A DNA stretch of 31,968 bases. It comes from a virus (Duplodnaviria; Caudoviricetes). The stretch covers positions 1-31,968 of IMG/VR virus record IMGVR_UViG_3300012921_000064; one strand, given 5' to 3'. The position numbers and the translations under genes were made by a program. Every line of letters starts with the position of its first letter. Position 1 is the first letter of the stretch. Under the pieces are notes generated by a model. It saw nothing but the letters and a program-made list of their open reading frames with translations. It did no database searches and was not told the origin of the DNA. Below, piece by piece: positions 3,013-31,968 of the stretch.

Positions 3013-3207
3013 GAGGCGGCCTCGGTGTGCCACGCTTCAAATGCAAGCATCCGCCAGACACGCGCGAGGCGCGCGACTGGCTCGCCGGCCGCGACGAGGC
3101 GGCAAGGATCATGCGCGAGGAGGATGACGGGAAGCAGCGGCGCGGTGCCCGATCCCCGCCGGAAGCGGCAATTTCCGCGCAGCTGTGCAATCAGGCGGGC
3201 AGGACGC

Positions 3208-3633
3208 CTATGCCGCCCGCCGCATCCACAGGCGTTCGCCAAAGCGGCGGAAGTAGCGGGCGAAGGTGGCAGCTTCCTGCATTGCCGGAAGCCTATGCGG
3301 CGCGGCCGACCAGTGGCGGCGGCGACAGCGGTCGATTTCCCGCCGGATCAGCCGGCGGAACTCGTCGACCGCATCCTCGGCTGACAGCGCAAGGCCGCCA
3401 TCGAGGAAGGCGAAGTAAGGCGAGCGGCTGAAGGTCGCCGGGACCTCGATCGCCTCGTCGATGCGCTCGACGAGACGCGCGCGACGCGCTGCCAACCATG
3501 CGGCCTGCGCGCGATCCGCGACGGCCTCGAAGGCGATGACCCGGCTGTCCGGCGGCGTCGTTGTCGTACCCCAGGCCTTGCGGTTCTGGGTGGCGGCCAG
3601 CGCCCGGAAATCGCGGTCGGTTTGTCGGGGCAT
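3208..3633 (-). CDS. Hypothetical phage early-left protein
   Basis: 141 aa helical-looking ORF directly downstream of the leftward promoter/operator cluster. Confidence 0.65.
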   Translation of the reverse strand: MPRQTDRDFRALAATQNRKAWGTTTTPPDSRVIAFEAVADRAQAAWLAARRARLVERIDEAIEVPATFSRSPYFAFLDGGLALSAEDAVDEFRRLIRREIDRCRRRHWSAAPHRLPAMQEAATFARYFRRFGERLWMRRAA

Positions 3634-3655
3634 TCGAGTGTGGATTCGTCCGATA

Positions 3656-3717
3656 TACGCATCGAGCGTATATGCAAATTGCGTATATAGTCAACGCAGG
3701 AAAACGCATTTTGCGTT
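3656..3717 (-). promoter_or_regulatory. Left operator cluster (three 15-bp palindromes) with leftward promoter
   Basis: TACGCATCGAGCGTA 3656-3670, TATGCAAATTGCGTA 3671-3685, AACGCATTTTGCGTT 3703-3717; minus-strand TTGACT-N18-TACGCT overlaps them. Confidence 0.8.
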
Positions 3718-3839
3718 TGTTTTTTGGGTCATGCGACCCTGATTGGCTTCGGCGCCGCCCCCTCTCGAGCAATCCTAAGCCTGGCTTCGCCAAGCAAAGG
3801 ATTGCTGCCTCGCGGCAAGGGGGAGATAGGGCGGCGCTG

Positions 3840-4439
3840 CTATCTGGGGACCATGCGCTTGACCTTGGCGGCCCAGGCGATCTCGACGTCGAGGATGGGG
3901 GCTTCGGTGTTCGAGATGAGGTGAAAGAGGCCCGGCACTTTGGAACGCTGGACCTGTTTCACCAGCACGCGGTCATCGTTCAGGCCGACGACGCAGAGCC
4001 GCCCGATCATGTCGGGCGTCACCGGCGAGCGGACCTCATCATAGAACACCAGCCACTGGTTGAACACCGCCCCCAGGCTGTCGCCGCGGATTTCCACCGC
4101 CACCGTGTCGGGTGTGGAATCCTCCGGCGCCGGCACGGTCTCGAAGGGGCCCTGGCCTTCGCCGAAGTAATTTGCCGCAGCGCCGGCGCCGACAAAACCC
4201 AGCACCGGCACCTCGCGCGGCTCCACCGGCGCCTGGCCGCGGCCGGTGAGCAGCCAGTCGGTCGACACCTTGAACTTGCGGGCATACTGCATCAACTGCT
4301 CGCGCTTCGGCCCGCGGCTGCCGTTCTCATGGCCAGCATAGGTCGAATAAGAGAGCCCGAGCGTGTCGGCAGCCTCGCGGGCGCTGTCGTAACCCGCAGC
4401 TTCGCGCGCCTGTCTCAGCCTGTCAGCAACTGTCACCAT
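3840..4439 (-). CDS. CI-like repressor (XRE HTH + S24 autopeptidase)
   Basis: HTH (RLRQAREAAG...AADTLGLSYSTYAGHENG...VSTDWLLTG), Ala-Gly site in VGAG, catalytic Ser (GDSL) and Lys (VKQ); start probably ATG 4439 without RBS. Confidence 0.93.
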   Translation of the reverse strand: MVTVADRLRQAREAAGYDSAREAADTLGLSYSTYAGHENGSRGPKREQLMQYARKFKVSTDWLLTGRGQAPVEPREVPVLGFVGAGAAANYFGEGQGPFETVPAPEDSTPDTVAVEIRGDSLGAVFNQWLVFYDEVRSPVTPDMIGRLCVVGLNDDRVLVKQVQRSKVPGLFHLISNTEAPILDVEIAWAAKVKRMVPR

Positions 4440-4441
4440 GC

Positions 4442-4505
4442 CACGCATTTTGCATAGATATCCTACGCAAAAGGCGTTGACAATGAGTTACGCAAAAAGC
4501 ATAAC
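4442..4505 (+). promoter_or_regulatory. Right operator cluster (three 15-bp palindromes) with rightward promoter
   Basis: CACGCATTTTGCATA 4442-4456, TACGCAAAAGGCGTT 4464-4478, TACGCAAAAAGCATA 4489-4503; TTGACA at 4477-4482, N17, CATAAC. Confidence 0.82.
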
Positions 4506-4545
4506 AAGTGCATGGTCAGTTCAACGAACATTGCGCCAAAGAATT

Positions 4546-4623
4546 CCGCCGCCGCCCCCTCCGGCGCGCGGACAGGCCGGCACTGCCTGCCCCTCCTCCC
4601 CGGGCAGTGCCGGCCGCTTTCTT
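4546..4623 (+). ncRNA. Candidate cuckoo-like structured RNA / attenuator (hairpins with anti-SD loops)
   Basis: 15-bp stem 4575-4589/4601-4615 with loop CCCCTCCTCCC, preceded by a weaker hairpin with a CCCCTCC loop and followed by TTTTCTT. Confidence 0.45.
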
Positions 4624-4648
4624 CGGCACCGCGCACGGGGGAGCGGGC

Positions 4649-4798
4649 ATGAAGAGATTTCCCGTGCAACTCACCAAACTCATCTCCGGCACGGTTCGCG
4701 CCAGCGACCCGAATACGGGCGACTGGGCGGAGGCCGAGACAGCCGCGGAGGCGCTCGCAGAGCTTCGCCGCCGGCAAAGCGCACGAGCAGCCGCATGA
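4649..4798 (+). CDS. Small hypothetical phage protein (49 aa)
   Basis: RBS GGGGAG; ATGA overlap with the next gene. Confidence 0.6.
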   Translation: MKRFPVQLTKLISGTVRASDPNTGDWAEAETAAEALAELRRRQSARAAA

Positions 4799-5118
4799 GC
4801 CTGGTCGCGCTGGAAGAAGAGGCGCGGGAGCTGATCCGTGCGCGACCTGGCTTCGCGATCCTCATCGCCGAGCTTCTTGCTGATCCGGGGAAGATGCCGC
4901 GGGCCGGGCTGACGCGGCGCGAAAGCGAGGCGCTGAGCTTCATCAGGGCCTATGGCGCGGCAAGAGAGGGGATGTCGCCGAGCTATGCGGAGATAGCGTC
5001 CGCCATCGGCCTGAGGGCGAAGAGCGGCGTGCACCGGATCGTCACGAGGCTCGAGGAGCGCGGGCATCTCAGGCGGCTCGCGGGGCAGGCGCGTTCGCTG
5101 GCGGTGAAGAACGGGTAG
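4795..5118 (+). CDS. LexA-type winged-helix DNA-binding-domain protein (no peptidase domain)
   Basis: LTRRESEALSFI...PSYAEIASAIGLRAKSGVHRIVTRLEERGHLRR...ARSL closely follows the alphaproteobacterial LexA N-domain pattern; 107 aa. Confidence 0.85.
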   Translation: MSLVALEEEARELIRARPGFAILIAELLADPGKMPRAGLTRRESEALSFIRAYGAAREGMSPSYAEIASAIGLRAKSGVHRIVTRLEERGHLRRLAGQARSLAVKNG

Positions 5119-5900: not shown

Positions 5901-6422
5901 ATGAGCTGGTATGCAGTCAAAACTGCGCCGGGGGCGCAGCTCGCGCAGCGCGAGTATCAGGTCGAGACGACCCGCAGCGTCAAGGGCTATCGCATCGTGC
6001 CCTCGCTCAACCCGCACGTCTCGGCGGTCGAGCGCGCACTGAAGGACAATGGCTTCATCTTCTATATGCCGGCGGAGAAGCGACTGGTGCGCGACCGCCG
6101 CCGCACCGACCTCTGGAAGGTCAGGCGCTTCGCTTTGATGGTCGGCTACCTGTTCGTGAAAGACCCGCACGACTGGCTGTTGCTCGAGGAGACGCCGGGA
6201 GTCGCCGGCGTGCTCCGCTCGGCCGAGGGTCGACCGCTCGAGGTGGCTCTCGAGGACGTCCTGGTGGTGCGGGCGGCGGAAGCCCAGGCCGAGGTGGAGT
6301 TCGATCGCGCCTCGCGCGCGGCGCGGCAGAAGCTGCGGCAGAAAGCGAAGACCGATGCGCGGCTTCAGGCGCTGGTCGAGAAGCTCGATATTGCGGGATT
6401 GGTTACCGTCCTCGAAGGGTAG
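5901..6422 (+). CDS. NusG-family (NGN) antiterminator paralog
   Basis: MSWYAVKTAPG, YMP, GYLFV and TPGVAGVL motifs of the NGN domain; RBS GAGGGGAG; KOW domain not evident. Confidence 0.85.
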   Translation: MSWYAVKTAPGAQLAQREYQVETTRSVKGYRIVPSLNPHVSAVERALKDNGFIFYMPAEKRLVRDRRRTDLWKVRRFALMVGYLFVKDPHDWLLLEETPGVAGVLRSAEGRPLEVALEDVLVVRAAEAQAEVEFDRASRAARQKLRQKAKTDARLQALVEKLDIAGLVTVLEG

Positions 6423-6486: not shown

Positions 6487-7569
6487 CTATTTTTGCCGCG
6501 GCTCCGGGAGGTGCTGGCCGGCCGTGACCAGGCGGCCGGCACGCTGCTGCATGACGGCCTCGGCGAGGCTGCGCGCGACGTTGCGAACCTCCTCTTGCAT
6601 CTCGGTGTCGACGTCGAGCTCTTCATGGCTGGTGGCATACGGCTTCCAATAGCCGATGTAGCGATCGAGCTCGGCGAGTGGTCCCGCGGGCACAAGCCGC
6701 ATGAAACGCAGCCAGTCGGAGACCGAGCGGCGTGCGTTTTCGGCACCTTCGACGTCGCCATGCACAGCCACGGCGAAGAGGCGGCCGGCGAGATGGCGCG
6801 GATAGTCCCAGCCGTCGAGCTCGATCTTCTTTGCCCTGGCCGCGTCCTTGCCCTGCGTCAGCGTCGGGTCGGGATTGCCGCCGTCGGCGCACACCATGCG
6901 GTCCATCATCAGCTTCAGCGGCGAGGACACGTGATACCAGTTCACCGGGCTGATGATCATGATGCCGTGCGCCGCCACCCATAGCGGATAGATCTCGTTC
7001 ATCCAGTCCTGCGTCTGGCCGAGCGCGTGGTTCGGGTAGCAGGAGCAGGGCCAGTGGCAGAGCGGCGCGGCAGTCGAGAAGCACGCCTTGCAGGGGTGAA
7101 TGTTGCGTCCGTACTCCGAGGCCAGTCGCGACAGGTCGAGAAGGTCGACGGCAAGGCCGGCGTCTTCGAACGCCTTCTCAGAAAGCTGCGCGAGCCGGTA
7201 GCTTTTCGACATCTCGCCAGGGCAGGTGTGCTCGCTGCGCGAGGAGCCGTTGATGAGAAGGACGCGCGGGACCTGGGCAGTGTCGTCGTGGTGCTTTTGA
7301 GCTTCAGCAATCGCTTGCCGGGCGGCCAGCCAGTCGGCCGACAGATCATAGCCGGGATCGGCGAACCCGGCGCCGGCCTTGCGGGTGATCGGCGACTTGC
7401 GGGATTCGGCGTAAGCCTGCCAGGCGATATCCGCGATCCTGCCCAGCGCCTCCCGGTGCGGCTCGAAGGCGGGGTCGACGAATTGCTCGGCATAGCGGCG
7501 CTTGAACTCGACTTCCGAAAGTTTTGGGCTGGGCATGCCCTTGCGTGGTTTCATCGCGATCCGTTTCAT
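6487..7569 (-). CDS. Flavodoxin-family / NADPH-dependent FMN reductase-like protein
   Basis: LINGSSR FMN loop, HPCKACFS...CHWPCSC, SPVNWY...LKLMMDR, VHGD; start at 7569 or 7554. Confidence 0.88.
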   Translation of the reverse strand: MKRIAMKPRKGMPSPKLSEVEFKRRYAEQFVDPAFEPHREALGRIADIAWQAYAESRKSPITRKAGAGFADPGYDLSADWLAARQAIAEAQKHHDDTAQVPRVLLINGSSRSEHTCPGEMSKSYRLAQLSEKAFEDAGLAVDLLDLSRLASEYGRNIHPCKACFSTAAPLCHWPCSCYPNHALGQTQDWMNEIYPLWVAAHGIMIISPVNWYHVSSPLKLMMDRMVCADGGNPDPTLTQGKDAARAKKIELDGWDYPRHLAGRLFAVAVHGDVEGAENARRSVSDWLRFMRLVPAGPLAELDRYIGYWKPYATSHEELDVDTEMQEEVRNVARSLAEAVMQQRAGRLVTAGQHLPEPRQK

Positions 7570-7587
7570 GCTCGTTGCCGCGGACGT

Positions 7588-7672
7588 AACGTGCCGGCGC
7601 GCACGAGGTTCACTGTCGTCAGGCGCAGCCCAAGGCCGCGCGGCGGTGGAACTTCGATCCGGAACAGGAGTT
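7588..7672. promoter_or_regulatory. Divergent EcfG/RpoE2-type general-stress promoters
   Basis: Plus strand GGAAC-N17-GTT (7648-7672); minus strand TGAAC-N16-CGTT (7612-7588). Confidence 0.6.
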
Positions 7673-7720
7673 GCTATGGCAGCCGGCCAGGCGGGCCGGA
7701 GCATTTTCGGAGCAGCACAA

Positions 7721-7975
7721 ATGGGTTGGCTGGTCGCCGCGCTCGTCGGCGCCATTATCGGCGCCTTGGCCGAAGTCTCCATACGGAGCAGCTTCGGTGC
7801 CTTGGGAAACGTGCTGGCCGGCATAACCGGCGCAGTGGTCGGCAACGCCGCAATCCTCTATCTGGGGTCCCATCTCGGCGACGATGTGAGCTTCGCACTC
7901 GCGGCAATCGTGGGCGCGCCCATACTGATCGGTGTGACGCGGATGCTGCGTTCGCAACCCACGATCCTGGGCTAG
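7721..7975 (+). CDS. GlsB/YeaQ/YmgE-family (transglycosylase-associated) membrane protein
   Basis: MGWLVAALVGAIIGALA...GNVLAGITGAVVG...AIVGA; three hydrophobic segments; RBS GGAG. Confidence 0.85.
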   Translation: MGWLVAALVGAIIGALAEVSIRSSFGALGNVLAGITGAVVGNAAILYLGSHLGDDVSFALAAIVGAPILIGVTRMLRSQPTILG

Positions 7976-8260: not shown

Positions 8261-8926
8261 ATGCCGCCCAAGAAAATCGAGCGGCGCCCCTTCGTGCGTT
8301 ATTCGCCCGAGACCGCAGCGAAAATCTGCGCAGGGCTGGCCGATGGCCGCAAGCTGCGCTCGATCTGCGCCGATGACGGGATGCCGGCGGAAGCAACAGT
8401 GTTTCGCTGGCTGGCGGTTTACCCCGATTTCCGCACGCTCTACGACGACGCCCGCAGAGGCAATGGCGGGACTCGCTATTCACCTCAGCTCGGCGCCGCA
8501 ATCTGCGAAGCGCTCGCCGAGGGCCGCAGCCTGCGGTCGATCTGCGCCGACGAAGAAATGCCGGGCAGATCGACCGTCTTTCGCTGGCTGGATGAGCACG
8601 CCGAGTTCCGCGTACTCTATGCGCGGGCCCGCGCGGTGCAGGCGGAAACGTTTTTCGACGAGACTATCGAGATCGCGGATGACGCGCGCAACGACTGGAT
8701 GGAGCGCCGTACGCAGAAAGACGCCAGCTGGGTCGCCAATGGCGAGAACATCCAGCGCTCGAAGCTGCGCATCGATACGCGCAAATGGGTCGTCGCGAAG
8801 CTCAGCCCGAAAAAGTATGGCGACAAGGTCGAGCTGGCGGAGACTGCCGACGTGCCGGTGGTCAAGGTTGTTCGGGAGATTGTGAAGGCGGGGAGGAAGA
8901 AGGGGGTTAGAGCAGTAGAGCGATAG
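8261..8926 (+). CDS. terS: Terminase small subunit (Sf6 gp1-like) with tandemly duplicated HTH domain
   Basis: Two copies of RYSP..AA.IC..LA.GR.LRSICAD..MP...TVFRWL, then IEIADD...RSKLRIDTRKW...KLSPKKYGDK. Confidence 0.9.
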   Translation: MPPKKIERRPFVRYSPETAAKICAGLADGRKLRSICADDGMPAEATVFRWLAVYPDFRTLYDDARRGNGGTRYSPQLGAAICEALAEGRSLRSICADEEMPGRSTVFRWLDEHAEFRVLYARARAVQAETFFDETIEIADDARNDWMERRTQKDASWVANGENIQRSKLRIDTRKWVVAKLSPKKYGDKVELAETADVPVVKVVREIVKAGRKKGVRAVER

Positions 8927-9364: not shown

Positions 9365-9646
9365 CTAGTCGCAGGCTACTGGTTGGTAGAGCTGCATATC
9401 TATCACCAACGCGTCTCCGACGAAAATGTAGGGGTGCATGTTGCCAGCCTCGTCGGTGGCGACCCTGGTCGAGATACCGGTCCCAGCCGAACCAGTCGTC
9501 AGCGTTGTTTCGTTGGCGCCACGGGTCCAGCGAAAGCCGCCATCGATTTCAACGATCTTCCAATTCGGGTCGTCGACAAATTCGTAACAGCTCTTATCAG
9601 CCAAGGCCGGCGTAGCCGACAGCAGCAGAGCGAGCAGCGTCTTCAT
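9365..9646 (-). CDS. Small secreted protein, 'AGTG' family copy 1 (putative peptidoglycan-hydrolase inhibitor)
   Basis: Signal peptide MKTLLALLLSATPALA, two Cys, TGSAGTG motif; paralogous to 29084-29857 and 30577-30897. Confidence 0.8.
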   Translation of the reverse strand: MKTLLALLLSATPALADKSCYEFVDDPNWKIVEIDGGFRWTRGANETTLTTGSAGTGISTRVATDEAGNMHPYIFVGDALVIDMQLYQPVACD

Positions 9647-9679: not shown

Positions 9680-10855
9680 ATGCCGTCTCTCACCCCACAA
9701 GAGCGCCTCGATTTGGCGCTGACCATCGCCGGCGAGATCGACCCTCGGCTTACCCCGTATGGGACGCCGGAATCCGCGCAAGAGATTGCGGCTATTCTGG
9801 GGACGATCGACAACCGGCGAACCTTGGGGGTGTTCAAGTACGGCACGTTCTCGGATGTCGTGAAGGCCCCCAAGCAGTATTCGACTTGGAACAACGCCGA
9901 CAGCAGACGCATCGCGCGTGAGAACTACCAAAACTTCAAGGAGCACATCGACAAAGCAATCGAAGCGTACGCTGGCGGCTATTTGAAATCTCCAGCGCCT
10001 GGTGCGACGCACTATTGGGCGCCGCGTGCAATGGAAGCGATGACTGGCAGTCCAAATCCCTACTGGGCACCTGATCTCGTCAAGCCATGGACGTCCGTAG
10101 GCGCACACATCTTCGGCGCGTATCCAGGTACCCCGGAAAAGCTGGCGGTGGCGCGCGACTGGATGCGCAGCCCGCCGGTTCCAATGATGAACCCGGCTAC
10201 CTTAGAAAGCATTGGCGTTCCTAGGAGCTGGTCGGAGTACGCAGCGTCGCGGATGTCGGCGCCGAGAGACCCGGTAAGCGACGGCCGCTCCATCGCCGAA
10301 ATGCAACAAGACCGGCTCACGATGGGGCTCGGTGGCGTGCTTGGCCTCGACGGACGCTTGGTCGGGCCGTCGCCGTTGGCGCCGGCCCCCGTCGGCCCCG
10401 TCGAGCGATACCCACTTCCGCTGCCGGCGCCGGTCGAGGACAGGGCCTCGCCTCTCGCGGCGTCTCCCATCCTGCATGTCACGCGCAGCCCCCTCCCAGC
10501 CGCTCGGGGGAAGCCGACCAACCGTCCATCGCGCGAGCTTGGCGCAATGCGACCCGCCGCGGCGAAAGCGTCCGATACCGACCTTGACAAGCTAAGGGCC
10601 GCCTATGCGCAGCTGGCGGCTACACGCATGGCAGGCCTGCTGATGCAAATGGCGCCGGTCGCTGCGCCGAAGGCAACGCCGGCTGCGCCGGCAGGCGAGC
10701 GTTTGATCCGCAAAAAGCCGGTCGCTAACCCGATCTCTGTAGGCCGGCCCGCCAGTGGGCTGGGTGGCAGCTTTTCAGGCGGCGCTGGCGGGCTCGGCGG
10801 CGGACCGACCGGCGGCGGTATGGGCGGGCTCGGCCAGAACTACGGGGGGTTGTGA
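9680..10855 (+). CDS. SleB/Hydrolase_2-like cell-wall hydrolase with Pro/Gly-rich C-terminal extension
   Basis: LALTIAGE (catalytic Glu), TIDNR, VV.AP.QYS.WN, GATHY, PYW, VGAHIF; RBS GGAAGGGA before ATG 9680. Confidence 0.85.
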   Translation: MPSLTPQERLDLALTIAGEIDPRLTPYGTPESAQEIAAILGTIDNRRTLGVFKYGTFSDVVKAPKQYSTWNNADSRRIARENYQNFKEHIDKAIEAYAGGYLKSPAPGATHYWAPRAMEAMTGSPNPYWAPDLVKPWTSVGAHIFGAYPGTPEKLAVARDWMRSPPVPMMNPATLESIGVPRSWSEYAASRMSAPRDPVSDGRSIAEMQQDRLTMGLGGVLGLDGRLVGPSPLAPAPVGPVERYPLPLPAPVEDRASPLAASPILHVTRSPLPAARGKPTNRPSRELGAMRPAAAKASDTDLDKLRAAYAQLAATRMAGLLMQMAPVAAPKATPAAPAGERLIRKKPVANPISVGRPASGLGGSFSGGAGGLGGGPTGGGMGGLGQNYGGL

Positions 10856-15635: not shown

Positions 15636-15665
15636 GGGAGCGAGCAGGCAACAGGCCGGCCGCTC

Positions 15666-22062: not shown

Positions 22063-22074
22063 GGGAGTGAGAAC

Positions 22075-23520: not shown

Positions 23521-23918
23521 GCGTCAACCTCGCAATCGGCGGCTCGCTCCTGCCGCCGGCTTCGACCGCGCTTGCGGGCACAGGCGAGACGGACGTGTTT
23601 GTGGCTGCGGGCGGCAGCCCGTCGACCGCGATCAGCATCGCCGTCGCCAACCAGGACACGGGCAGTGCCTGCCGCGTCACCATCCGATGGAGCGACGGCA
23701 CGAACGCCTTCCATCTCTTCACCGGCAACATCGAGGCGGGCGAGACGGAAGGCGTGTCGCATGGCCTGCCGCTGGTGCTGAACCCGACTGCCGCGAACGG
23801 GGCGGGGGTGGCGAAGAAGATCACGGCGCAGGCGGCGGCCGGGGGCGACCTCACCGTGACGGTGATCGCGACACGCGCCATGCCGCAGCAAACCGGCCCG
23901 GCAGGGAGCGGCAAATGA
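23517..23918 (+). CDS. Hypothetical virion protein
   Basis: 133 aa MSVNLAIGG..., ATGA overlaps at both ends. Confidence 0.8.
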   Translation: MSVNLAIGGSLLPPASTALAGTGETDVFVAAGGSPSTAISIAVANQDTGSACRVTIRWSDGTNAFHLFTGNIEAGETEGVSHGLPLVLNPTAANGAGVAKKITAQAAAGGDLTVTVIATRAMPQQTGPAGSGK

Positions 23919-24391
23919 TCAGGCTGGCAGCGCTCGCCGAGATCGACGCGACCTGGCCAAGGATCGCGGCGGGGATGGAAGAATGCTGTCGCCGCTCCGG
24001 CGGCGACATCACCCCGGACTGGCTGTTTTTCGCCTGCCGCAAGGGCGAGGCCCTGCTCTTCCTGGTCGAGGATGGCCGCGGGACGATGCTGGGCGCCCTG
24101 GTCGCGGCGCCGCAGCATTGGGCCGGGCAGCGCGTCCTGCGCATCCTGGCACTATGCGGACGCGGCCTGGCCGGCTGGCTGGGCGAGTTGAAGGCGTTCA
24201 CGCCGTTGCTCGGGATCGAAAAAGTGATTTTCGAGGGCAGGGCGGGCTGGAGCCGCGTGCCAGGGGTCCGCGAGCTCAGGCGGGTTTACGAAGCGGAGCT
24301 GGAGGGCGTGCCTCCTGCGCCCCTTCGCCCCTTCGACAAGCTGACGACTCAGGAGGGCGGCGAGACGCCGCTCCGAAGCACAATTGCATAA
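23915..24391 (+). CDS. GNAT-like phage protein preceding ejection genes
   Basis: LRILALCGRG, FEGRAGW.R motif; C-terminus reads through a palindromic repeat. Confidence 0.75.
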   Translation: MIRLAALAEIDATWPRIAAGMEECCRRSGGDITPDWLFFACRKGEALLFLVEDGRGTMLGALVAAPQHWAGQRVLRILALCGRGLAGWLGELKAFTPLLGIEKVIFEGRAGWSRVPGVRELRRVYEAELEGVPPAPLRPFDKLTTQEGGETPLRSTIA

Positions 24392-24409: not shown

Positions 24410-25237
24410 ATGGGTGGCAAGACGACGACGAGCACGAGCGAACCCTGGGCGCCGGCGCAGGGCGCGCTGACCAGCACGCTGGCCGATGCAGGCAAGCTCT
24501 ACCAGAACGGCATCGGCCGCAGCATCTGGAGCGGCCCAACCAATGCGCCCTTTGCGAGCCAGCAGGCGTCCGGGCTCAACCATATGGAAAATACGGCACG
24601 CGCGATGACGCCGTGGATGAGCAAGGCTCCCGAGCGGCTCGACGGCATTGCCAATGCCGGCCCGTCCTATGCCGAGCGCAACCTTGGCGACGTGGCGTCG
24701 GGAAAATTCCTGGCCGGCGGCGATCCGCATTTCGAGGAGGCGCTGAGCAGCGCGAGCCGAAGGGCGCAGGACGCAGTCAACCTGCAAGCCTCGCAGATGG
24801 GCCGCATGGGCTCGGGCGCGAATTACGGCAATGTCGCGCGCGAGATCGGCGACATCCAGACCCAGGCCCGTTCCGGCCAGTACAATCGCGAGCGCGCCTA
24901 CCAGATGAACGCGAACCAGATGCTGGATGCGGAGCGGCAGGCCGGGCTTGCGAACCGCCTCGCCGCCTTCGACCGCATGCCGGCGGCGTTCGACCAGGCG
25001 ATGCTGCCCGGGCAGGCGCTGTTCGACGTCGGCCATCGCTACCAGGGCCAGGCGCAGAACGTGCTCGACGACCAGATCAGGATGTTCGACGCGGCGCAGA
25101 GCGGACCGTGGGAACAGCTCAGCCGCTACAACGCGATCGCGCAAGGCATGGGCGGGCTCGGCGGAACGACGACGCAGCGGGAACGCGGTTTCGGGCTCGG
25201 CGACCTGCTCGGGATCTTAACGAAGCTGCGTGGTTAA
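24410..25237 (+). CDS. DNA ejection/pilot (internal virion) protein
   Basis: MGGKTTTSTSEPW start, Ala/Gln/Gly-rich, GRMGSGA, PWEQL..Y; position after tail genes. Confidence 0.8.
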   Translation: MGGKTTTSTSEPWAPAQGALTSTLADAGKLYQNGIGRSIWSGPTNAPFASQQASGLNHMENTARAMTPWMSKAPERLDGIANAGPSYAERNLGDVASGKFLAGGDPHFEEALSSASRRAQDAVNLQASQMGRMGSGANYGNVAREIGDIQTQARSGQYNRERAYQMNANQMLDAERQAGLANRLAAFDRMPAAFDQAMLPGQALFDVGHRYQGQAQNVLDDQIRMFDAAQSGPWEQLSRYNAIAQGMGGLGGTTTQRERGFGLGDLLGILTKLRG

Positions 25238-25247: not shown

Positions 25248-25382
25248 ATGGGTGGCAATAGCACCACAGCTGCAATCGGCGCGATGACTGGCGTCCCGGG
25301 TGTGCCCGGCGCGTCAGCATGGTTGCCCGGCGCTCTCGAGGCGCTGGCGACGGAATTGCAGGCCGGCAGGAGCGGTGATTGA
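25248..25382 (+). pseudogene. Truncated copy of second 'MGGN' ejection-type gene
   Basis: Strong RBS TAAGGAG; MGGNSTT...PGALEALATELQAG matches MGGNNPTT...PGLIEALAAQLQAG of 28685-29044; stops after 44 aa. Confidence 0.65.
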
Positions 25383-25475
25383 GCCGCCACATCCCGTTCC
25401 CCAGCGACCGATCCGTATGGCACTCGTCCTCGACAGAAGCTTGGCCCGACCAGCGCGCAGCCAGCCGGGCGAGCG

Positions 25476-26937
25476 TTGCACGAGCCGCCGGCAGCGCGGC
25501 CTGCTATCCGGGCTAGAGCCGCGGAGGGTCGAAACGTTATCGCTGCGACGAGGGAACGAGAAGGTCATCAGGGCAGGCCCGTGCGGTTCGCCGAAGCGTG
25601 GGAGGCGACCGTCGAGGTTCCGGAATACGACATCATGGGCAATGCAACCGGCGGAACTATCAGATTTCAGCCGAACCTGCGGCCAATGCATCCGCTGGAC
25701 CCGACGGCTCGGGCTGACCCGCGAGGCCATTGGGCAATGGCTGACAAGCCCGGTGGCGCGGGCGCCGTGCGAGACGGCCAACCCTTCGGTCTGTTGCCCG
25801 GCTCGAAGCCGACAGGTGAGATGGTTGCATATCATCCGACCCTCCGCGACAGGCTGGGCAACCTCATTTACGATACCGCGACATCGGCCGGGTTCGGCTT
25901 CGACGCGAACAATAAGCGCGAATACAGCCAGATATTTGCCGACTTCACTCCGGCCGGGACGGTTTTCGACCTAGAGGACGCATACCGGGCTGTGGACGCC
26001 GGCAACTACTGGGATGCCGCGCTGCAGGCCAGCTTGGCGACACTGGGCGCCGCAGTTCCGATTGCAGGTAGGATCGCAAGCAAGGTCGTGAAGAAACTTG
26101 CGAGGTCTCCGATCGCGGACGAAGCCCTTTCTGCGGCGGTCGAGCGCGCGCAGAGCGAATGGCGCCGCCGACGGTGAGGTGTTGGACGCCTTTTCCTGGC
26201 CGGAAATGTATCACGACCTCGCCGATGAGCCGCAGCGTCCTTTCAAAGATGATTACCCGGATGTCGTCGAGGCCGATGCAACCGGGCGATTGCTCAAGGA
26301 CAGGTTGGGACTGCCGATCCATACGCACAACGTCAGTGGTCGCAGGACGAAGGGGGGACCAGACGTGGCCACGTCGCCCGCCGATGACCGAGCAGTTGGG
26401 GAGGCGCTTGGCGCGAAATACGAGGTCGTGAAGCGGGAGGAAATTGGTGGCAGTTCAGGAAGAGCGGGAGCCCATCTCGATCCGAATACGAGAAAGGTCG
26501 TCGCCGACTACGTCAAGATTGCGGACGATCTTCATCGGCGTGACGTACCACGGGCGGAGTTTCACGAGACTGGGCACCTTATCGATTGGGTAGCTGGCCA
26601 GATACCTATCGACGGAATCGAAGACGAGTTGCTGCCGCTCTACAGCATCATGCAGACCGGCAAGACGTGGCCTCTTACCACTCCACTGGACCGAGGCTAT
26701 TCTGGGCGCCAAGTGCAGTGGGAGTTGATCACTGAAGCCTTGCGAGCTTACCGGACAAATCCAAACGCGATGAAGAAGCTTTACCCCAAGACCGCGGACC
26801 GCCTTGCCTATGCGGTCAATCGCCATCCTCATCTCAACAAGCTCATGCACCTCAACAGCATTCTTGTAGGAACTGGTGCCGCCGGCATTGGCGCAGCTTT
26901 CATCGGCAACGAGGAGAGCAGAGAGCCGAGACTGTAG
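25476..26937 (+). pseudogene. Frameshifted polymorphic-toxin-like gene: pre-toxin-like linker + zincin metallopeptidase
   Basis: Frame A: ADFTPAG...GNYWDAAL...LGAAVPIAG..K..K; frame shift near 26150; frame B: FHETGH (HExxH) and ELITEALRAY..NP...YP. Confidence 0.7.
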
Positions 26938-27012
26938 CCGAGCTGCTTCTTTCTTGGCACTGCCTGTCAAAGCTGCTATGAGAAGGCACTATACATCCCG
27001 CGCGAGAACAGC

Positions 27013-27330
27013 TTGCAGGACGAAGCGAAAGAAGACATCGGTTTGTTCGCTCCCGTCGGCTTGTCGGCGCGTCGGAAGTGGCGCTCGCGGCCGTACAAGC
27101 CTTCCCGACAACTCGATATGACCCAGGCAGAGCGAGACTGGTTGGCGCAGTTCTTGCGCTGGGAACGCAGTCTGAAGCGGGTTGCGCCTCCGGACCGCCC
27201 CTTTACCGGCGAGGAGCGCTACAAGGGCCGCGATGACTATCCTGGATTCCCGGCATCCATAGAAATCCTTACTTCTGGTCATGGCCCCTTTAGGGATCCG
27301 CGCGCTCGAGAGAAAGCCAAAAGTCGCTAA
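27013..27330 (+). CDS. Small partner (putative immunity) protein, copy 1
   Basis: SRQLDMTQAERDWLAQFLRWERSLKRVAPP paralogous to 27877-28266; stop codon supplied by the palindromic element; start uncertain. Confidence 0.6.
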   Translation: MQDEAKEDIGLFAPVGLSARRKWRSRPYKPSRQLDMTQAERDWLAQFLRWERSLKRVAPPDRPFTGEERYKGRDDYPGFPASIEILTSGHGPFRDPRAREKAKSR

Positions 27331-27428
27331 AGCATGTCGCGTGAATTGGGATTCACGCGACATGCTTTAGGTCTTTGATTTTGCGCATGTCTTAGTCCCA
27401 AAACCGGGGCCACTTTTGGGAGACATGC
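27327..27428. repeat. ~100-bp palindromic miniature element, copy 1
   Basis: CTAAAGCATGTCGCGTGAAT-tggg-ATTCACGCGACATGCTTTAG plus a second GCATGTCT...AGACATGC hairpin; near-identical to 30022-30124. Confidence 0.92.
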
Positions 27429-27433
27429 CGTAG

Positions 27434-27800
27434 TTGGTTAGAATATCGGCTCCCCTTCGGCCGCAATTTATTGTGCACGGTATCAAAGCCCCGTTGTTCC
27501 GCATGTGGAGCAGTCTGAAGACCGGTAGGGAAGGACCGCCTTTCGTCCGTCCGCGGGACTACGGCTACGACGCGGACCAGGAGTTGCGTGAACTGAAAGC
27601 TGAAGCCGGACGTGCCTATTTTGCCGATCCGAACTGGACAAAGGCTCGCTACCCTGAGGTTGCCGAGCGCTTCCGAGACACCATCGCCAAAGACGAGAGG
27701 CTCCGGGAGATCGTCCGCCTCAATACACTTCTCCTTGGCGCCGGCGGCGCCGGGGATCGGGGCCGGCCAACTGTTCGGCAATGAGGAGCCGAGGTTGTAA
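27434..27800 (+). pseudogene. Orphan C-terminal half of a second metallopeptidase paralog
   Basis: TG..P...P.D.GY...EL.AEA.RAY..DP...YP aligns with 26098-26937; +1 shift near 27750 restores GIGAGQLFGNEEPRL. Confidence 0.75.
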
Positions 27801-27876
27801 GGCGGGCGGCCGGCTCATTTCGGCGCGGGCGCAAAACTGCTATAGTCGCCTCAGCATCGAGGGAATTTGGGAAGCT

Positions 27877-28266
27877 ATGGGCGACAAGGCGAAGGGGACA
27901 GAAAGACTGCCGCTCAAGGACCTGCCGCTGGCGGTTCGCAAGCGCCTGCGGCAATCGGCACTTGACGAATGGCATGAGAACCCGGGGAAGCGTTCCCGCG
28001 AACTGGATTTGACCTAGGAAGAGCAGGATTACATAGCCCGGTACGTACGTTGGAGCCGGAGTCTGAAGCGAGTTACGCCACCGGCCGACTACCGCTACCG
28101 CGGTGACGATTTCTATCAAGGAATACGGGATCCGGCGCTGCCGCCGTATGTCCCGGTCTCGCTGCTCCTTCGCGACGGAAACCCTCGCAGAGAACATTGG
28201 GGGTATCTGAACCGCAGGGGTCTCAATCGGCCAAGGCCGTTCGTTTTCCTCCAAGATGAAGAATGA
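27877..28266 (+). pseudogene. Small partner protein, copy 2, with in-frame TAG
   Basis: SRELDLT*EEQDYIARYVRWSRSLKRVTPP; TAG at 28015-28017 aligns with CAG (Gln) in copy 1; TGCTATAGT extended -10 upstream. Confidence 0.72.
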
Positions 28267-28684
28267 CGAGACGCGATCCTGAGCGGGGCTCGACGCGGCT
28301 CAAGGACCGGTGAGTTGTGATCCTGCCAGGGGCGGCATCGGCGGCGGACTTTTCCGCAGCGATGCACGGTACAGGCGTTACACACAAGATCACCATCTTG
28401 ATAAATGCGTCTGACCAAAACTCTCTCTCGAGAGCCCCCGTTGCAGAGCGTGAAGAGGGCGACCGCGCCTGGCATGCGGTAGCTGCTCTTGACGCTATGC
28501 CCCGCTATCGGGCCGGTTGAGCGCGGCAGAAAGCCGAGACCGTGGCGCAGCTGCCTCTTCCTGGCGAGTTTTTCGAAATTGCCTTGCCACGCCGACGCTG
28601 GAGCTATTTCCGCGCCGGCCATGCCGCACGAGCCCTGTCCCTCGTGCCATCGATCTCTTTGCTCAAATTCAGGAAAGACAGAAC

Positions 28685-29044
28685 ATGGGTGGCAACAATC
28701 CAACCACGCAGACCGAAACGCCGGCGATCTCCGGCTTTCCCGCGACGGCCGGCAGCTACACGATGCAGCCGGCGCCGCCGGGTTTAATCGAGGCCTTGGC
28801 CGCGCAGTTGCAGGCCGGCTATGGCGGCAACCAGCGCGCCTATCTCGACACGGTCTACCGGCCGATGACGTTCCCGTCATTCCATGCGCTCGGGATGCCC
28901 GTCGCGGCCACGGCAGTGGTGCCCGCGACGCATGCTGCGGCGCCGGCTGCAGGAAAGGCAGCGAGCGCTGCGCCGCTGCCGAACACGCCGATCGAGCAGC
29001 TCCTGTCGCGCTCCCCGTCATCGAATTTCGGCGGGACGTATTGA
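28685..29044 (+). CDS. 'MGGN' ejection-type / internal virion protein
   Basis: RBS AGGA; MGGNNPTTQTET start like 24410; 119 aa. Confidence 0.65.
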   Translation: MGGNNPTTQTETPAISGFPATAGSYTMQPAPPGLIEALAAQLQAGYGGNQRAYLDTVYRPMTFPSFHALGMPVAATAVVPATHAAAPAAGKAASAAPLPNTPIEQLLSRSPSSNFGGTY

Positions 29045-29083: not shown

Positions 29084-29857
29084 TCAGTCGCAGTTCACCC
29101 AGTCGAGGCCGTCGGGCGCGCGGCAATAACCGTCATTCTCGAGATCTTCCAGAATGGCGATGGTTGCCGCACAGGCAGCATCGGCCTTCTCCTCGCTGAC
29201 CCTGATGCCGTCAGCATCCTCGCCGTCCAGGCAGATACGGCTCGCAACGGTCCAGCTCTCGAAGCGGGGATCGACGGGAAAGGTGGCGGGTGGCACGACG
29301 ACGATCGCAGGCCCGGGTTGGAGAACTGCGTCAGCGGAATACGGGTCCGCCGCGCAAAGGCGCCAGCCGCTCGCCGGGTCGTCGCAATAGCCGCCTTGCT
29401 CGAGCAGTTCCTGGAGCGCGACGGCTTCGGCACAGGCGGCCTTGATGTCATCCTCGCCAGTCTTCACGCCGTAATGATCATCGCCCGAGTTGCAGGTGTG
29501 GTTCGCGTATAGCCAGGCCCTCAGCACGCTGCCCAAATCGGGCGCGGGCGCAGCGTCCGGCGCCGCGATCGTCTGGCAGAACTCGACAAAACGCTCGTCA
29601 GCGAGCCAGAATTCGCCTTGCTTGCGAACGACCTGCATCGGGGCCGAGCCGTCGCGCGGATGGGCGACCTGAATTGCAGAGCCGGTGCCGGCGCTGCCCG
29701 TCCAAAACGACTGGGCTTTCCCGGTTTCACGGAGGGTCAGTTCCAGCCCATTATCGACGAGCACTCTTTCGCCGGCGGGCTTTCTGGTGCTCGTGTAGGT
29801 ATCGCAAGCAAGTGCGGTATTGGTGACCAACAGCAGAAGCGCGGCGACGTACTGCAT
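29084..29857 (-). CDS. Secreted 'AGTG' family protein copy 2 with two extra Cys-rich repeats
   Basis: Signal peptide MQYVAALLLLVTNTALA, TGSAGTG, then 2x W...C..G.....AAC.....L...GYC....W..C; RBS GGGAGGG. Confidence 0.82.
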   Translation of the reverse strand: MQYVAALLLLVTNTALACDTYTSTRKPAGERVLVDNGLELTLRETGKAQSFWTGSAGTGSAIQVAHPRDGSAPMQVVRKQGEFWLADERFVEFCQTIAAPDAAPAPDLGSVLRAWLYANHTCNSGDDHYGVKTGEDDIKAACAEAVALQELLEQGGYCDDPASGWRLCAADPYSADAVLQPGPAIVVVPPATFPVDPRFESWTVASRICLDGEDADGIRVSEEKADAACAATIAILEDLENDGYCRAPDGLDWVNCD

Positions 29858-29865
29858 CGTTCCCT

Positions 29866-29915
29866 CCCGACGAGACGGCAGATCGTGCCGCCCGACGAGA
29901 CGGCAGATCGTGCCG
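29866..29915. repeat. Perfect 25-bp tandem duplication
   Basis: CCCGACGAGACGGCAGATCGTGCCG x2. Confidence 0.95.
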
Positions 29916-29936
29916 CCATCCACCAGAATAAGATGA

Positions 29937-29951
29937 GAACAAAGGCAGAAC
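29937..29951 (-). promoter_or_regulatory. Alphaproteobacterial LexA (SOS) box
   Basis: GTTC-tgccttt-GTTC on the minus strand, between TTGCCA and CATCTT promoter-like hexamers. Confidence 0.75.
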
Positions 29952-30021
29952 AATGGCAAGAGCGCAGGACAAAGCGCAACGATAGCGGCATCCCGGTCTC
30001 AGACACCGTGGCGGTGACGAC

Positions 30022-30124
30022 CTAAAGCATGTCGCGTGAATTGGGATTCACGCGACATGCTTTAGGTTTGGGGACTTTGCGCATGTCTTTGTCCCAAAAT
30101 CGGGACCACTTTTGGGAGACATGC
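30022..30124. repeat. ~100-bp palindromic miniature element, copy 2
   Basis: Near-identical to 27327-27428. Confidence 0.92.
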
Positions 30125-30576
30125 TGTGGAGCGTTTTCGCGATAGGTAGAATCGCTAAACCGCTCTAAGCTATTGTTTTTGCAGTAAGAACGGCGAGAAT
30201 TTCCGCCGGGATCCACCTTTCCTGGATTTGCCCGAGCGAGGCCGAGCCAAGCGTGCCCGCTTCCGTCCGCCCCTTGACGGGGCTGTTCGCGGCCGGCTGA
30301 ACCACTGTCGGACCAGCGCTCATTGGCGAACGCAACAAGCAAACCAGGCCAGCGCGGTCGACCAAAGGGCACCGCGCACTCTCCGCAGTTCAAGGAACAG
30401 GCATGGCAAGATTGCATGATGGCCGCGCTGTCAACGCTGGCGTCGGCAGGGCCTGGTAGATGGCCCGGACGGTCGCTTCATCAGGCGTTACGGCAATGAT
30501 CCCATAAGCGCTGCGGAGAAGGCAGCAAGTTCCACTCTGGCCTTTCCCGCCCTCTTCAGCGCCGCACACGACGCGG

Positions 30577-30897
30577 CTATTTCGTCGTGCAGCCTGGGCG
30601 ATAGATTTCCAGGTCGAACACGAGCACCTCGTCAACAAAAAGGAACGAATAGTGATGCTCGCTATCGCCATTCCACTCATAGGCGTACCGCCTGGGGATA
30701 CCGGTGCCAGCACCGGATGTGCCTAGCTCCACGACTTGTCCTCCTTGGTTCCAAACCATCTCTGGTTCTATGCCCGGATCATTAATGGTGACAGTCCAGT
30801 CGGGATTATCTTCGTTCTGATAACACCGAGCGGCGGCGGCCGGCGAAGCGAGGGCGAAGGACGCCATCGCGAGAAGAAAACCAGCGGTGAGCTTCAT
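30577..30897 (-). CDS. Small secreted 'AGTG' family protein copy 3
   Basis: Signal peptide ending AAA, CY...D.PDW, TSGAGTGI, HYSFLFVDEVLVFDLEIY.P.C; aligns full length with 9365-9646. Confidence 0.85.
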   Translation of the reverse strand: MKLTAGFLLAMASFALASPAAAARCYQNEDNPDWTVTINDPGIEPEMVWNQGGQVVELGTSGAGTGIPRRYAYEWNGDSEHHYSFLFVDEVLVFDLEIYRPGCTTK

Positions 30898-30938
30898 TGA
30901 TCGCTACCCCTTTCGAGCAAGTATCAAAACCAGCCAAA

Positions 30939-30953
30939 GAACAAAGGCAGAAC
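30939..30953 (-). promoter_or_regulatory. Alphaproteobacterial LexA (SOS) box
   Basis: Identical GAACAAAGGCAGAAC (GAAC-N7-GAAC). Confidence 0.7.
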
Positions 30954-31068
30954 GATGGCGGCGCAGTCATCGGGACAAGCCAGCGGCGCTGCACCGGCGC
31001 CGCCACAGCTACGGGAAACAGTCCCTGCAGATGCGCAAAGAGCTTCACGATCAACCAGGATTGGCCAA

Positions 31069-31968
31069 ATGCCCAACGTTGTCGACTTGACCGAGCAGGA
31101 CATCGATTACATCGCGCGAGTGGTACAGACCGAGGTCGACCACGGGTTGGCGCCCCAGGAACACAAGGCGATGGTTGAGATGGTGGTCGACACCATTCTC
31201 AACCGGATGGCGACAGAGCGCTACGGCTCTTCGATCACTGATGTCCTAAACGATCCACGCGCGTTCACCAAAATCACAGGCCCGGCGCAATATGACCCTT
31301 ACGGCAGTGTGCAGGCAGCACCGAAGGCCAGCCGACGAGTGCAGAGCCTCGTCAACGCCCATATCGCGGCGCGCGCTCAGGGAAAGCCCTCGACGATCGG
31401 GACGCGGGCCAGAGAGCAGGGCTTGCCGGCCTCGTTGGGCGGCAGCGTCAATTATGCCAATCCGTTTGAGAGCGACGAGACGAACTGCGCGGGTGGGTGA
31501 ACCCGATGATCGCCGCCGGAGCGGCAAAGGTCGGGACCGGCAAGTCGGTCCACTACCACGGCAACGAACCTGGTGTTAAGGGGCGCCACCGCTTATCACC
31601 TGCAGCCGCCCATCGGGTTTTTTCCCGGACTTATGGAACCCTGGGAAGCGCGCTACAACCCTGATCCGCTTCCGTCACCACGGCCATTGTCACCCATCGA
31701 GCTCTCGCGGCAGTTGGTCAACGGACTTGGCGAAGCGGGGGTGCTCGGCCTCGATGGGCGTTGGCAATCGAGCATGGGATCCCGCCTTTCGAGCGAGGGA
31801 CTGTGCCGGCGGCTGAAGGACGTGATGGCGGTGAGCCTGCCGCACGGCAACGTCGCCCACATGAACTCCAAATACGGGTACATCTCGACCTGGAGCCCGG
31901 CAGACGACGACGAGCGCGGCACGGTCTACGGCAAAGCGCTGGCGATCGACCCGACAGGCAAGCACTAC
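31069..31968 (+). pseudogene. Second SleB-like cell-wall hydrolase, frameshifted, runs off window
   Basis: IARVVQTE, TILNR, ITDVLN...AF, NYANP; shifts near 31485 and 31580 restore WVNPM...HYHG and GVLGLDGR (also in 9680-10855). Confidence 0.72.

Follow-up and report, generated by a model that had tools for sequence, protein, structure and literature searches.

The question raised by this locus is whether the phage genes behind lon and hupB in the window (the whole stretch of 31,968 nucleotides analysed here) encode a particle that the host maintains or are the remains of a prophage. The module is contiguous with lon-hupB-clpX and so sits in the host chromosome, where it comprises intact phage-derived head and packaging genes, a feature of GTAs. 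Our best explanation, to which we give a probability of roughly 0.45, is an early-stage domesticated, GTA-like particle module of SU10-fold podovirus origin. On our analysis, the particle would likely carry host DNA after DNA damage, as a GTA does, and would be kept by selection and inherited vertically in sister soil lineages. The features of the window are listed in Table 1.

Table 1. Features of the window, from the host flank to the contig end.
Feature	Positions	Strand	Remarks
Host lon, left flank	1..2424	+	90-91% to Mesorhizobium-labelled genomes; 97.5-97.6% to two sister lineages
Host hupB, left flank	2613..2885	+	PF00216
141-aa ORF, no known family	3208..3633	-	Sole ORF remaining in usual integrase/recombination gene slot
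cI-like repressor	3840..4448	-	phrog_4; likely autocleavage residues A88-G89, S124, K164
LexA-type HTH protein	4795..5118	+	PF01726; 90.6% on 6.77-Mb contig
Two small native phage ORFs, 117 and 83 aa	5283..5888	+	Neighbours in prophage G011 too
NusG-like transcription antiterminator	5901..6422	+	PF02357, phrog_25909
FMN reductase and GlsB-like membrane ORF	6487..7975	- and +, respectively	PF03358, PF04226
Terminase small subunit (TerS), duplicated Sf6-type domain	8261..8926	+	PF20901, two stretches
Small secreted 8-stranded beta-barrel protein	9365..9646	-	Antisense to hydrolase 1
Hydrolase 1, Hydrolase_2 (SleB-like) ejection-type, intact	9680..10855	+	PF07486; between terS and terL
Terminase large subunit (TerL)	11510..12787	+	PF04466; at most 76% to Mesorhizobium prophages
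C-terminal fragment	12791..13066	+	Paralogous to end of 16378-17235, 60% over 30 aa
SU10-type portal	13536..15635	+	PF23899, E 4.5e-192; 91.4% on 6.77-Mb contig
Duplicated insert block	15632..17707	+	Small native ORF twice (15990, 17444) around 285-aa cargo ORF and its frameshifted partial copy
Head scaffolding protein	17981..18949	+	phrog_3927
SU10-type major capsid protein	18971..19981	+	PF17236; 69.6% to RHph_I1_23; 96-98% to three relatives
Three small virion-region ORFs, likely including decoration protein	20123..21398	+	Syntenic homologues in RHph_I1_23 and many viral loci
SU10 adaptor and nozzle (short tail)	21451..23520	+	PF24175, phrog_2941, phrog_3287
Two conserved small genes 5' of ejection gene	23517..24391	+	
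First DNA ejection protein, intact	24410..25237	+	phrog_4287; 88.6-90% on 6.77-Mb contig
Cargo zone in usual slot of ejection genes 2 and 3	25249..29044	+	
HExxH zincin-like ORF	26206-26937	+	Inside cargo zone, as is its partial duplicate
Two more secreted proteins of the 9365 family	29084..30897	-	Parted by second host palindrome, 30020-30127
Hydrolase 2, frameshifted and truncated	31069..31579	+	RHph_I1_23 gp16 homologue, 48-50% over ~140 aa, then other frame
ORF, no known family, cut by contig end	31633..31968	+	

The genes for TerS, TerL, portal, scaffold, capsid, decoration, adaptor, nozzle and the first ejection protein are open and about as long as their RHph_I1_23 homologues, and TerL has its Walker A/B, coupling and nuclease motifs. 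This agrees with the earlier note, which had described an uninterrupted core with its motifs kept. As the capsid protein is full length, there is no sign of a reduced head. A terminator-like site was found at 8181-8194, upstream of terS, with a terminator count not above that of shuffled sequences. From terS to the first ejection gene, the gene order is that of the temperate Rhizobium phages RHph_I1_23 and RHph_N3_2 and of related proviruses, which are SU10-fold, pCB2047/phiM5-like podoviruses; identities to RHph_I1_23 are 69-70% for the capsid, 52% for the portal, 49% for TerS and 50% for the hydrolase. Unlike these phages, the module has no integrase and lacks the recombination and replication blocks that flank cI, its large ejection, fibre and lysis genes were not seen, and it is fixed behind hupB and invaded by host repeats.

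From the end of hupB to the start of terS we measured 5,376 bp (955 bp between hupB and cI, 1,453 bp between cI and the antiterminator), matching the gap of about 5 kb noted before. By Pfam and PHROGs, it contains cI, a LexA-type HTH, small ORFs, a NusG-like antiterminator, an FMN reductase and a GlsB/transglycosylase-associated ORF. The last two genes are likely later host-type inserts. No tRNA gene was found in the window by ARAGORN and no integrase, recombinase, helicase or primase among its 52 ORFs by Pfam and PHROGs, nor did the integrase, ERF and replication proteins of relatives give a tblastn match in it. Between the window and tRNA-Val genes from relatives, the longest exact match is 11 nt (13 nt if one mismatch is allowed), so the window contains no att duplicate. 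The lack of integration and replication functions first read from the sequence was therefore borne out within the window. Of three intact relatives (G500, G504 and G506), all have a replication initiator on the terS-facing side of cI, and two, G500 and G504, carry ssDNA-annealing, exonuclease or Gam genes in the early-left region; both slots are empty here. An integrase is carried by 9 of 10 related viral records. In prophage G011, too, none of the ORFs of at least 150 aa that lie from cI to terL is recognisable as a replication gene, which indicates that such genes can escape PHROGs.

The proposed repressor switch was found in part. The cI-like repressor, beside which operator-like repeats lie at 4464 and 4489, has 12 relatives at 94-97.5% identity. 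Its Ala-Gly site, Ser124 and Lys164, presumably the residues of autocleavage, and its helix-turn-helix are invariant in 11 of 11 aligned sequences. A Cro-like HTH opposite cI was not found in the window by PHROGs and further profile scans; with cI alone recognisable, this is half a switch. Judging from the conserved cleavage residues, inducibility of the locus through cI is plausible.

A single contig of 6,765,786 bp encodes Lon (97.6%), HU (identical), cI (96%), the LexA-type protein (90.6%), ORF5283 (91.5%), portal (91.4%), capsid (97.9%), decoration protein (95.8%), adaptor (92.1%), ORF23517 (94.7%) and the ejection gene (88.6%). Lon, cI, ORF5283 and the antiterminator occur together on a contig of 12,669 bp, which is too small to hold both early blocks besides, implying that a second lineage has the same compact left junction. 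The relatives are known as clustered proteins whose contigs share one length, from which we infer their gene order. The shared position and the protein identities of 89-98% point to an inherited insertion common to the sister lineages, and vertical inheritance at a fixed site is suggested indirectly by the shared contigs and the capsid clade, at the shallow depth that Lon (97.5%) implies. The synteny at lon-hupB raised in the earlier note is thus implied on both contigs, while the module lies behind hupB in none of 20 relative loci; in 11 of these 20, tRNA-Val is found 3' of hupB, which is often followed by tRNA-Val/tRNA-Asp. A sample of about 600 Rhizobiaceae genomes yielded no copy of the module at this identity. 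In the tree, the four close capsid proteins group in a single clade (100/100), nested among free phages. In a capsid fragment of a second strain, 17 of 22 changed codons are synonymous against 27% expected (P ~1e-6, among the 23 differences listed, on one contig); a second-strain contig also covers 5303-6131 of the window. A cassette protein, at 75% identity, diverges faster than the core at 89-98%. GC3 of the core is 0.78-0.88, near that of lon (0.89). Host maintenance is therefore supported by shared position, protein identity, synonymous bias and GC3, with absence from the sampled genera on the other side.

A possible explanation that we take seriously is a cryptic, slowly decaying prophage. 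A deletion in the common ancestor of a few related species would have grounded it, and it would persist through repressor immunity, exclusion or inertia, with no useful particle. It would account for the missing ejection genes 2 and 3, the broken hydrolase 2 and other cargo, the host repeats, the duplications, the narrow range and the 12 relatives of cI versus three of the capsid, although such cluster sizes favour short genes on short contigs. The type 4 elements of Liberibacter, described as long retained and read as remnants, are a precedent (PMC6854039). Like the orthologous defective prophages of Bobay 2014 (via PMC5381585), they too are integrase-less, with host-like GC and divergence in step with the host. 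In the type 4 strain described there, however, the genes for head and portal are in pieces, whereas the present module has an unbroken core and retains its switch and antiterminator. Several findings argue against decay: open frames make up about 13 kb of core genes, with 89-98% conservation relative to a lineage whose Lon differs by 2.4%, the capsid has its synonymous bias and breaks fall in the cargo only. Purifying selection has been reported for ordinary orthologous defective prophages as well (Bobay 2014, via PMC5381585).

One absence escaped the earlier note: neither of the two large ejection genes is in its usual slot. In each of the 20 loci, from 16 distinct records, that extend 2.4 kb or more beyond the first ejection gene, an ORF of at least 330 aa starts within 0.75 kb of that gene. 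Ejection genes 2 and 3 left no profile trace in the window, where the longest ORF in this region is at most 279 aa over 6.7 kb, and the cargo zone includes N-terminal fragments of ejection genes. Tail fibre and lysis genes were not found by tblastn with relatives' proteins in the window, which ends at the contig end. Ejection proteins carry podovirus DNA across the envelope (PMC9509320).

It is improbable, in our view, that the module is a helper-dependent or interfering element, for which an incoming podovirus would supply replication and ejection while the module gives heads or redirects packaging as a satellite, lateral-transduction site or defence. The module does keep the repressor, the antiterminator, terS and the head genes while lacking replication and large ejection genes, and free phages close to it are frequent (119 viral stretches, with capsid identities of up to 77%). 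However, no integrase or origin for a satellite life was found by Pfam, PHROGs and tblastn, and the module appears fixed, whereas satellites are usually mobile and patchy.

The interspersed genes had been read as effector cassettes. No toxin family was found in the inserts of the window by Pfam, PHROGs and further scans, the one Toxin_7 match (E 0.006-0.01 over 15 residues) being below the cut-off. As for toxin domains with a cognate immunity gene, only cell-wall hydrolases and the zincin-like ORF were seen, and the partner fold is generic: the model of the 9365 protein (pLDDT 86.5) has Atu4866 as best fold (Z 8.2) and PliC at rank 16 (Z 6.0). Its secreted family has 41 representatives at E<=0.001, a 75% homologue lies on the 6.77-Mb contig, and an ESM cluster named C-type lysozyme inhibitor scores 0.86, which is a lead only. 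Homologues of hydrolase 1 occur in phage records; the hydrolase is a regular RHph_I1_23 gene, and viral record L156 has the same hydrolase with an antisense secreted partner. The 285-aa cargo ORF is 44% identical to a prophage insert in L211. From these homologies, the supposed cassettes are likely native, partly decaying cargo of the phage group, namely ejection hydrolases, secreted beta-barrels and a zincin. Delivery of polymorphic effectors into competitors, with the antisense secreted proteins as immunity, is very unlikely: two hydrolase genes each adjoin an antisense barrel of a fold class that includes PliC, and the zincin ORF resembles polyvalent-protein domains (PMC5512222), but the cassettes have homologues in ordinary phages of the group, and most cargo is broken, several inserts being pseudogenes, the opposite of what selection for killing would predict.

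The breaks do cluster in the inserts, as had been observed: hydrolase 2 is frameshifted near 31497, the paralogue of 26938-27327 has an in-frame stop at 28015-28017, and the partial duplicate at 15632-15980 is frameshifted. The claim of host palindromic repeats at many junctions was narrowed: the palindromes at 27327-27431 and 30020-30127 are 84% identical over 102 nt to host DNA upstream of lon and match nothing in 1.29 Mb of viral loci, but only 2 of 8 other junction stretches tested match a host locus, one each. Duplications, host repeats and broken cargo are signs of decay.

Least probable of all is an ordinary mobile prophage with integrase and other genes beyond the contig end. In its favour, the window's right edge is the exact end of a 276,121-bp contig, one of three related proviruses (G500) has its integrase at the right flank beyond the tail genes, and tRNA-Val, a likely att site, would lie to the right. 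Against it, even G500 keeps a replication initiator and RecT beside cI, in slots that are empty here, the left junction appears compact in a second lineage and no att duplicate follows hupB.

If the module is an early domesticated particle, the ancestral temperate phage would have integrated near a tRNA-Val site downstream of hupB, and both early blocks would have been lost before the lineages diverged. RecA-triggered cleavage of cI would free the rightward promoter, and the NusG-like protein would allow transcription to pass the terminator ahead of terS. Without excision or replication, terminase would pack chromosomal DNA in place; the head would also hold the ejection hydrolase and cargo proteins, and the antisense secreted barrels may act as inhibitors. 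The weakest link in this chain is delivery to a recipient, given that neither large ejection gene is found in its usual slot.

The premise that alphaproteobacterial GTAs are siphovirus-like fits RcGTA and overlooks BaGTA (Bartogtaviriformidae), whose particles were initially described as lacking a tail or having a short one (PMC9662315) and whose TerL is described as nearest to pCB2047-type phages (PMC9662315; bioRxiv 2024.11.20.624540). The module resembles BaGTA in its Hyphomicrobiales host and its late operon under an antiterminator, but this is NusG-like here versus the Q21-like BrrG, and no run-off replication module was found in the window by Pfam and PHROGs. PF17236, the SU10 capsid family, was detected in two Zymomonas genomes but in none of 61 relatives of a Bartonella-labelled genome and none of 3 Bartonella-labelled MAGs; by this comparison of labelled genomes, the module appears not to be BaGTA. 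With RcGTA (Rhodogtaviriformidae) it shares a replication-less, vertically inherited head-packaging cluster; it differs in its phage-type cI, its very narrow host range and its SU10 short-tail parts (portal, capsid and adaptor families) in place of a siphovirus tail, and Pfam and PHROGs gave no tail tube or tape measure match in the window. It seems doubtful that the module is a young, independently domesticated GTA derived from an SU10-fold podovirus and still wired to that phage's SOS-cleavable repressor. It would then be a third type of alphaproteobacterial GTA at an early stage, and Zymomonas and small-genome Rhizobiaceae would each have captured phages of this group separately; the large ejection genes, lost here and apparently in Zymomonas, would then imply another route of DNA release or delivery.

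GTAs are known from few independent origins, all old, which makes the step from prophage to GTA hard to study. If our favoured reading is true, the locus would be a snapshot of this transition, with replication and recombination lost, the phage repressor kept and few sister lineages; it would suggest repeated capture of SU10-fold podoviruses in Alphaproteobacteria, of which the Zymomonas case is culturable. A merely decaying remnant would be an ordinary example of a known process. Contig depth in run X1 is 45-57 over the module and 44-46 over lon-hupB, weak evidence that gives no sign of amplification. The NusG-like antiterminator has five relatives at 86-91% identity, the next one being at 76%.

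The module behind lon and hupB is tentatively read as an early domesticated GTA-like module, with a probability of about 0.45. After hupB follow a 141-aa orphan, cI, a LexA-type HTH gene, two small ORFs, a NusG-like antiterminator, an FMN reductase and a GlsB-like ORF, and next terS, terL, an SU10 portal, the scaffold, an SU10 capsid, small virion genes, the adaptor, the nozzle and the first ejection gene. The closest named phages, Rhizobium phages RHph_I1_23 and RHph_N3_2 (capsid identity 69.6% and 68.5%), have the same gene order; capsid identity to pCB2047 and phiM5 was 44.5% and 41.9%. Every core gene is open and about as long as its homologues, and the TerL motifs are present. The GC3 was 0.78-0.88 in the core, 0.89 in lon and 0.60-0.77 in the cargo. 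The N-terminal DNA-binding domain of TerS is tandemly duplicated (71% DNA identity, two PF20901 stretches), while the homologues seen have one; the duplication could alter pac specificity.

Three related intact proviruses (G500, G504 and G506) all carry a replication initiator on the terS-facing side, and two of them ssDNA-annealing, exonuclease or Gam genes at the early-left side. In the window, the slots for those blocks measure only 955 and 1,453 bp, no match to the relatives' integrase, recombination or replication proteins was found, and there is no tRNA or att duplicate. The earlier note had described the locus as replication-less, without tRNA or att, and its core virion genes as uninterrupted, and both descriptions hold for the window. 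A caution on absence comes from the related prophage G011, in which no initiator is recognisable among the longer ORFs either. This prophage has a cI of 64% identity, a TROVE-like gene for RNA binding and homologues of ORF5283 and ORF5637, and no recognisable replication gene.

Ejection gene 1 was matched in 27 loci. In each of the 20 loci (from 16 distinct records) that extend 2.4 kb or more past it, an ORF of at least 330 aa follows within 0.75 kb, and two of these downstream proteins match phrog_2534. According to the available text on SU10, such ejection proteins build a channel across the periplasm (PMC9509320). The window has no ORF above 279 aa across the 6.7 kb after the first ejection gene, the hydrolase is reached without them, and no profile trace of large ejection genes was detected in it. 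The same gap is seen in the Zymomonas module, with only 225- and 153-aa ORFs at the ejection slot, so such a loss may characterise fixed modules of this sort. Alternatively, the module is a decaying remnant, which the gap would fit, as would the frameshift and truncation of hydrolase 2, which is 48-50% identical to RHph_I1_23 gp16. On the other side stand the open core and a capsid fragment of a second strain, in which 17 of 22 changed codons were synonymous against 27% expected (counted from the 23 differences listed for one contig, among 40 shown and 752 in all); decay is the main rival reading, somewhat less probable than the GTA-like one. The missing large ejection genes may also sit further right or elsewhere. 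A helper-dependent or interfering element could lack them along with replication, and we consider it improbable.

Inheritance with the host is suggested by exact-sequence protein clusters, in which co-location was inferred from the proteins' contigs being equal in bp, and gene order likewise. A 6,765,786-bp contig has Lon (97.6%), an identical HU, cI (96.0%), the LexA-type HTH (90.6%), the small secreted Cys-rich ORF5283 (91.5%), portal (91.4%), capsid (97.9%), decoration protein (95.8%), adaptor (92.1%), ORF23517 (94.7%) and the ejection gene (88.6%). A 12,669-bp contig has Lon (97.5%), cI (94.1%), ORF5283 (91.5%) and the antiterminator (87.3%), and is too short for added early blocks of ~9 and ~6 kb, the sizes found in G506. 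Of 30 proteins queried, 6 had no entry in exactly that form and 12 stood alone in their 90% clusters, including most of the cargo as well as terS, scaffold, antiterminator and ejection gene; a further 86% member of the Lon cluster was left out of the count. For cI, 12 relatives at 94-97.5% were found. In a tree of 34 rows hand-picked from stored loci, the four close capsids form one clade (support 100/100) among free phages, separate from the Zymomonas and small-genome clades. In the public read set X3, a second-strain contig links the antiterminator with ORF5283 over 828 bp, with 78 differences. In read set X1, the depth of the module (45-57) was near that of lon-hupB (44-46), so no sign of amplification was seen in that sample, a slight indication.

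The genome scan with TerL gave 76% at best, the metagenome scan with cI gave, apart from the contig of the window itself, only two distant matches, and no close copy turned up among the viral records open to scans with the capsid, cI, nozzle, hydrolase, decoration and ejection proteins. The capsid was found in 19 of 400 sampled genomes (best 68%), cI in 2/400, 2/202, 0/3 and 1/4 (best 68%), and the portal in none of 9; the two samples of 400 are largely the same genomes, with one genome unscored. No module at this identity occurred among ~600 sampled family genomes, and its range appears narrow. Lon is 90-91% identical to that of four Mesorhizobium-labelled genomes, and as the DNA identity of the lon stretch is at most 87% in every sampled genome, the host appears to be a Mesorhizobium-like lineage that has no near relative in the sample.

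In the cargo, hydrolase 1 is unbroken, and phage records contain homologues of it. An antisense secreted protein lies upstream of each hydrolase, and a Gly/Ser/Thr motif is common to three of these proteins, whose family has at least 41 representatives. They were modelled as an 8-stranded barrel (pLDDT 86.5; Z 8.2 to Atu4866 and 6.0 to PliC), for which a Foldseek search at E≤0.001 found nothing; an inhibitor or exclusion role is a lead only. As the hydrolase of viral record L156 is likewise preceded by an antisense partner of similar type, the pairing is native to the phage group. The HExxH-motif ORF shares 40% identity with an insert of prophage L017 and is similar to the zincins of polyvalent proteins as described in the accessible part of PMC5512222. 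No toxin family was detected in the cassettes by family and profile searches of the window ORFs. The effector or toxin cassettes of the earlier note were therefore not upheld, the hydrolases having phage homologues and L156 a similar pairing, and toxin delivery, which the secreted barrels and the zincin-like ORF might serve, is highly improbable. Of the host palindromes claimed at many junctions, two were substantiated as host repeats, with a summed depth of ~11,000 against ~55 in X1.

Positions of features in the window and of related loci
Feature	Locus	Positions
8-bp tandem repeat, ~six copies	window	2954-3017
Operator-like repeat cluster	window	3656-3717
Paired repeats by cI	window	4464, 4489
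Candidate terminator	window	8181-8194
Duplicated TerS domain	window	8297-8632
HExxH-motif ORF	window	26206-26937
Host palindromes	window	27327, 30020
Adenylation-domain and acyltransferase-like genes	L189 (contig holding the window)	14509-18369
ORF5283 homologue	L213	11663-11989
ORF5283 homologue	L227	5028-5950
Related prophage	L269 (G011)	3020-13490
Zymomonas-type module	L026	6220-21230
Zymomonas-type module	L020	
Zymomonas-type module	L261	
Zymomonas-type module	L263	
Zymomonas-type module	L265	
Third-clade locus	L207 (G370)	12884-18817
Third-clade locus	L209 (G213)	
Third-clade locus	L210 (G110)	

The window forms the right end of a metagenome contig of 276,121 bp: its base 1 is contig position 244,154 and its last base is also that of the contig. 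Host genes, clpX among them, lie upstream. No listed read-derived contig piece from three public read sets extends the right end; these are biocrust metagenomes that may be the source of the window DNA, and hence not independent. An integrase was found in 9 of 10 related viral records at E≤0.001 (8/10 above the cut-off), at the cI end in G504 and G506 and beyond the tail in G500. Given the G500 arrangement, an integrase right of the window is possible, and a mobile prophage would have it there; the empty replication slot stands regardless of the right flank, and we find the mobile-prophage reading the least credible. Among 20 relative loci, tRNA-Val lies 0.06-11 kb after hupB in 11, and the module is behind hupB in none. 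The phage would have integrated near tRNA-Val and then lost its left end by deletion. Directly past the hupB terminator is a tandem repeat at which Logan contigs break. Two module-less relatives have ORF5283 homologues near hupB, either older remnants or independent morons. Between clpX and lon, copies of the same host palindrome flank two genes, one with an adenylation domain and one resembling a membrane acyltransferase.

For the GTA-like module, a switch is suggested by cI, in which A88-G89, S124 and K164, presumably the residues of RecA-dependent autocleavage, are kept in all 11 sequences compared. The 141-aa orphan is preceded by operator-like repeats that resemble the paired repeats by cI, so cI may control this gene as well. 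SOS induction would start the module, antitermination would pass the candidate terminator (from a promoter/terminator scan not above shuffles), heads would assemble, and the chromosome would then be packaged in place. The BaGTA late operon is antitermination-controlled too, according to the available part of bioRxiv 2024.11.20.624540.

By its gene families the module is not of RcGTA type; it appears to resemble a GTA precursor and is not classed as a GTA. A relationship to BaGTA, first suggested by TerL matches in Bartonella-labelled MAGs, was dropped: in one such locus (L077) the portal and tail genes that follow are unrelated, and the SU10 capsid family had no match in 61 relatives of a Bartonella-labelled genome or in three such MAGs. 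The module does not appear to be BaGTA. Long-retained prophages without integrase are already known, as far as the accessible text of PMC6854039 and PMC5381585 goes. Our literature search found no paper on the locus or on a short-tailed GTA in Mesorhizobium relatives, and nothing on the Zymomonas module.

All four ~2-Mb genomes examined (G461, G462, G507 and G508, two of them Zymomonas-labelled) have an SU10-type module divergent from lon, a separate and probably older capture, and a culturable one. In G461 it spans ~17 kb (terS, terL, portal, capsid, adaptor, nozzle, ejection gene and two longer ORFs, then host genes); by eye rather than family scan, no repressor, integrase or replication ORF was seen in it. 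The capsid match is in two parts. Three AT-rich genomes of 1.1-1.2 Mb have portal, scaffold, SU10 capsid and adaptor homologues and form a third clade, with a gene set reminiscent of the type 4 remnant in the accessible part of PMC6854039.
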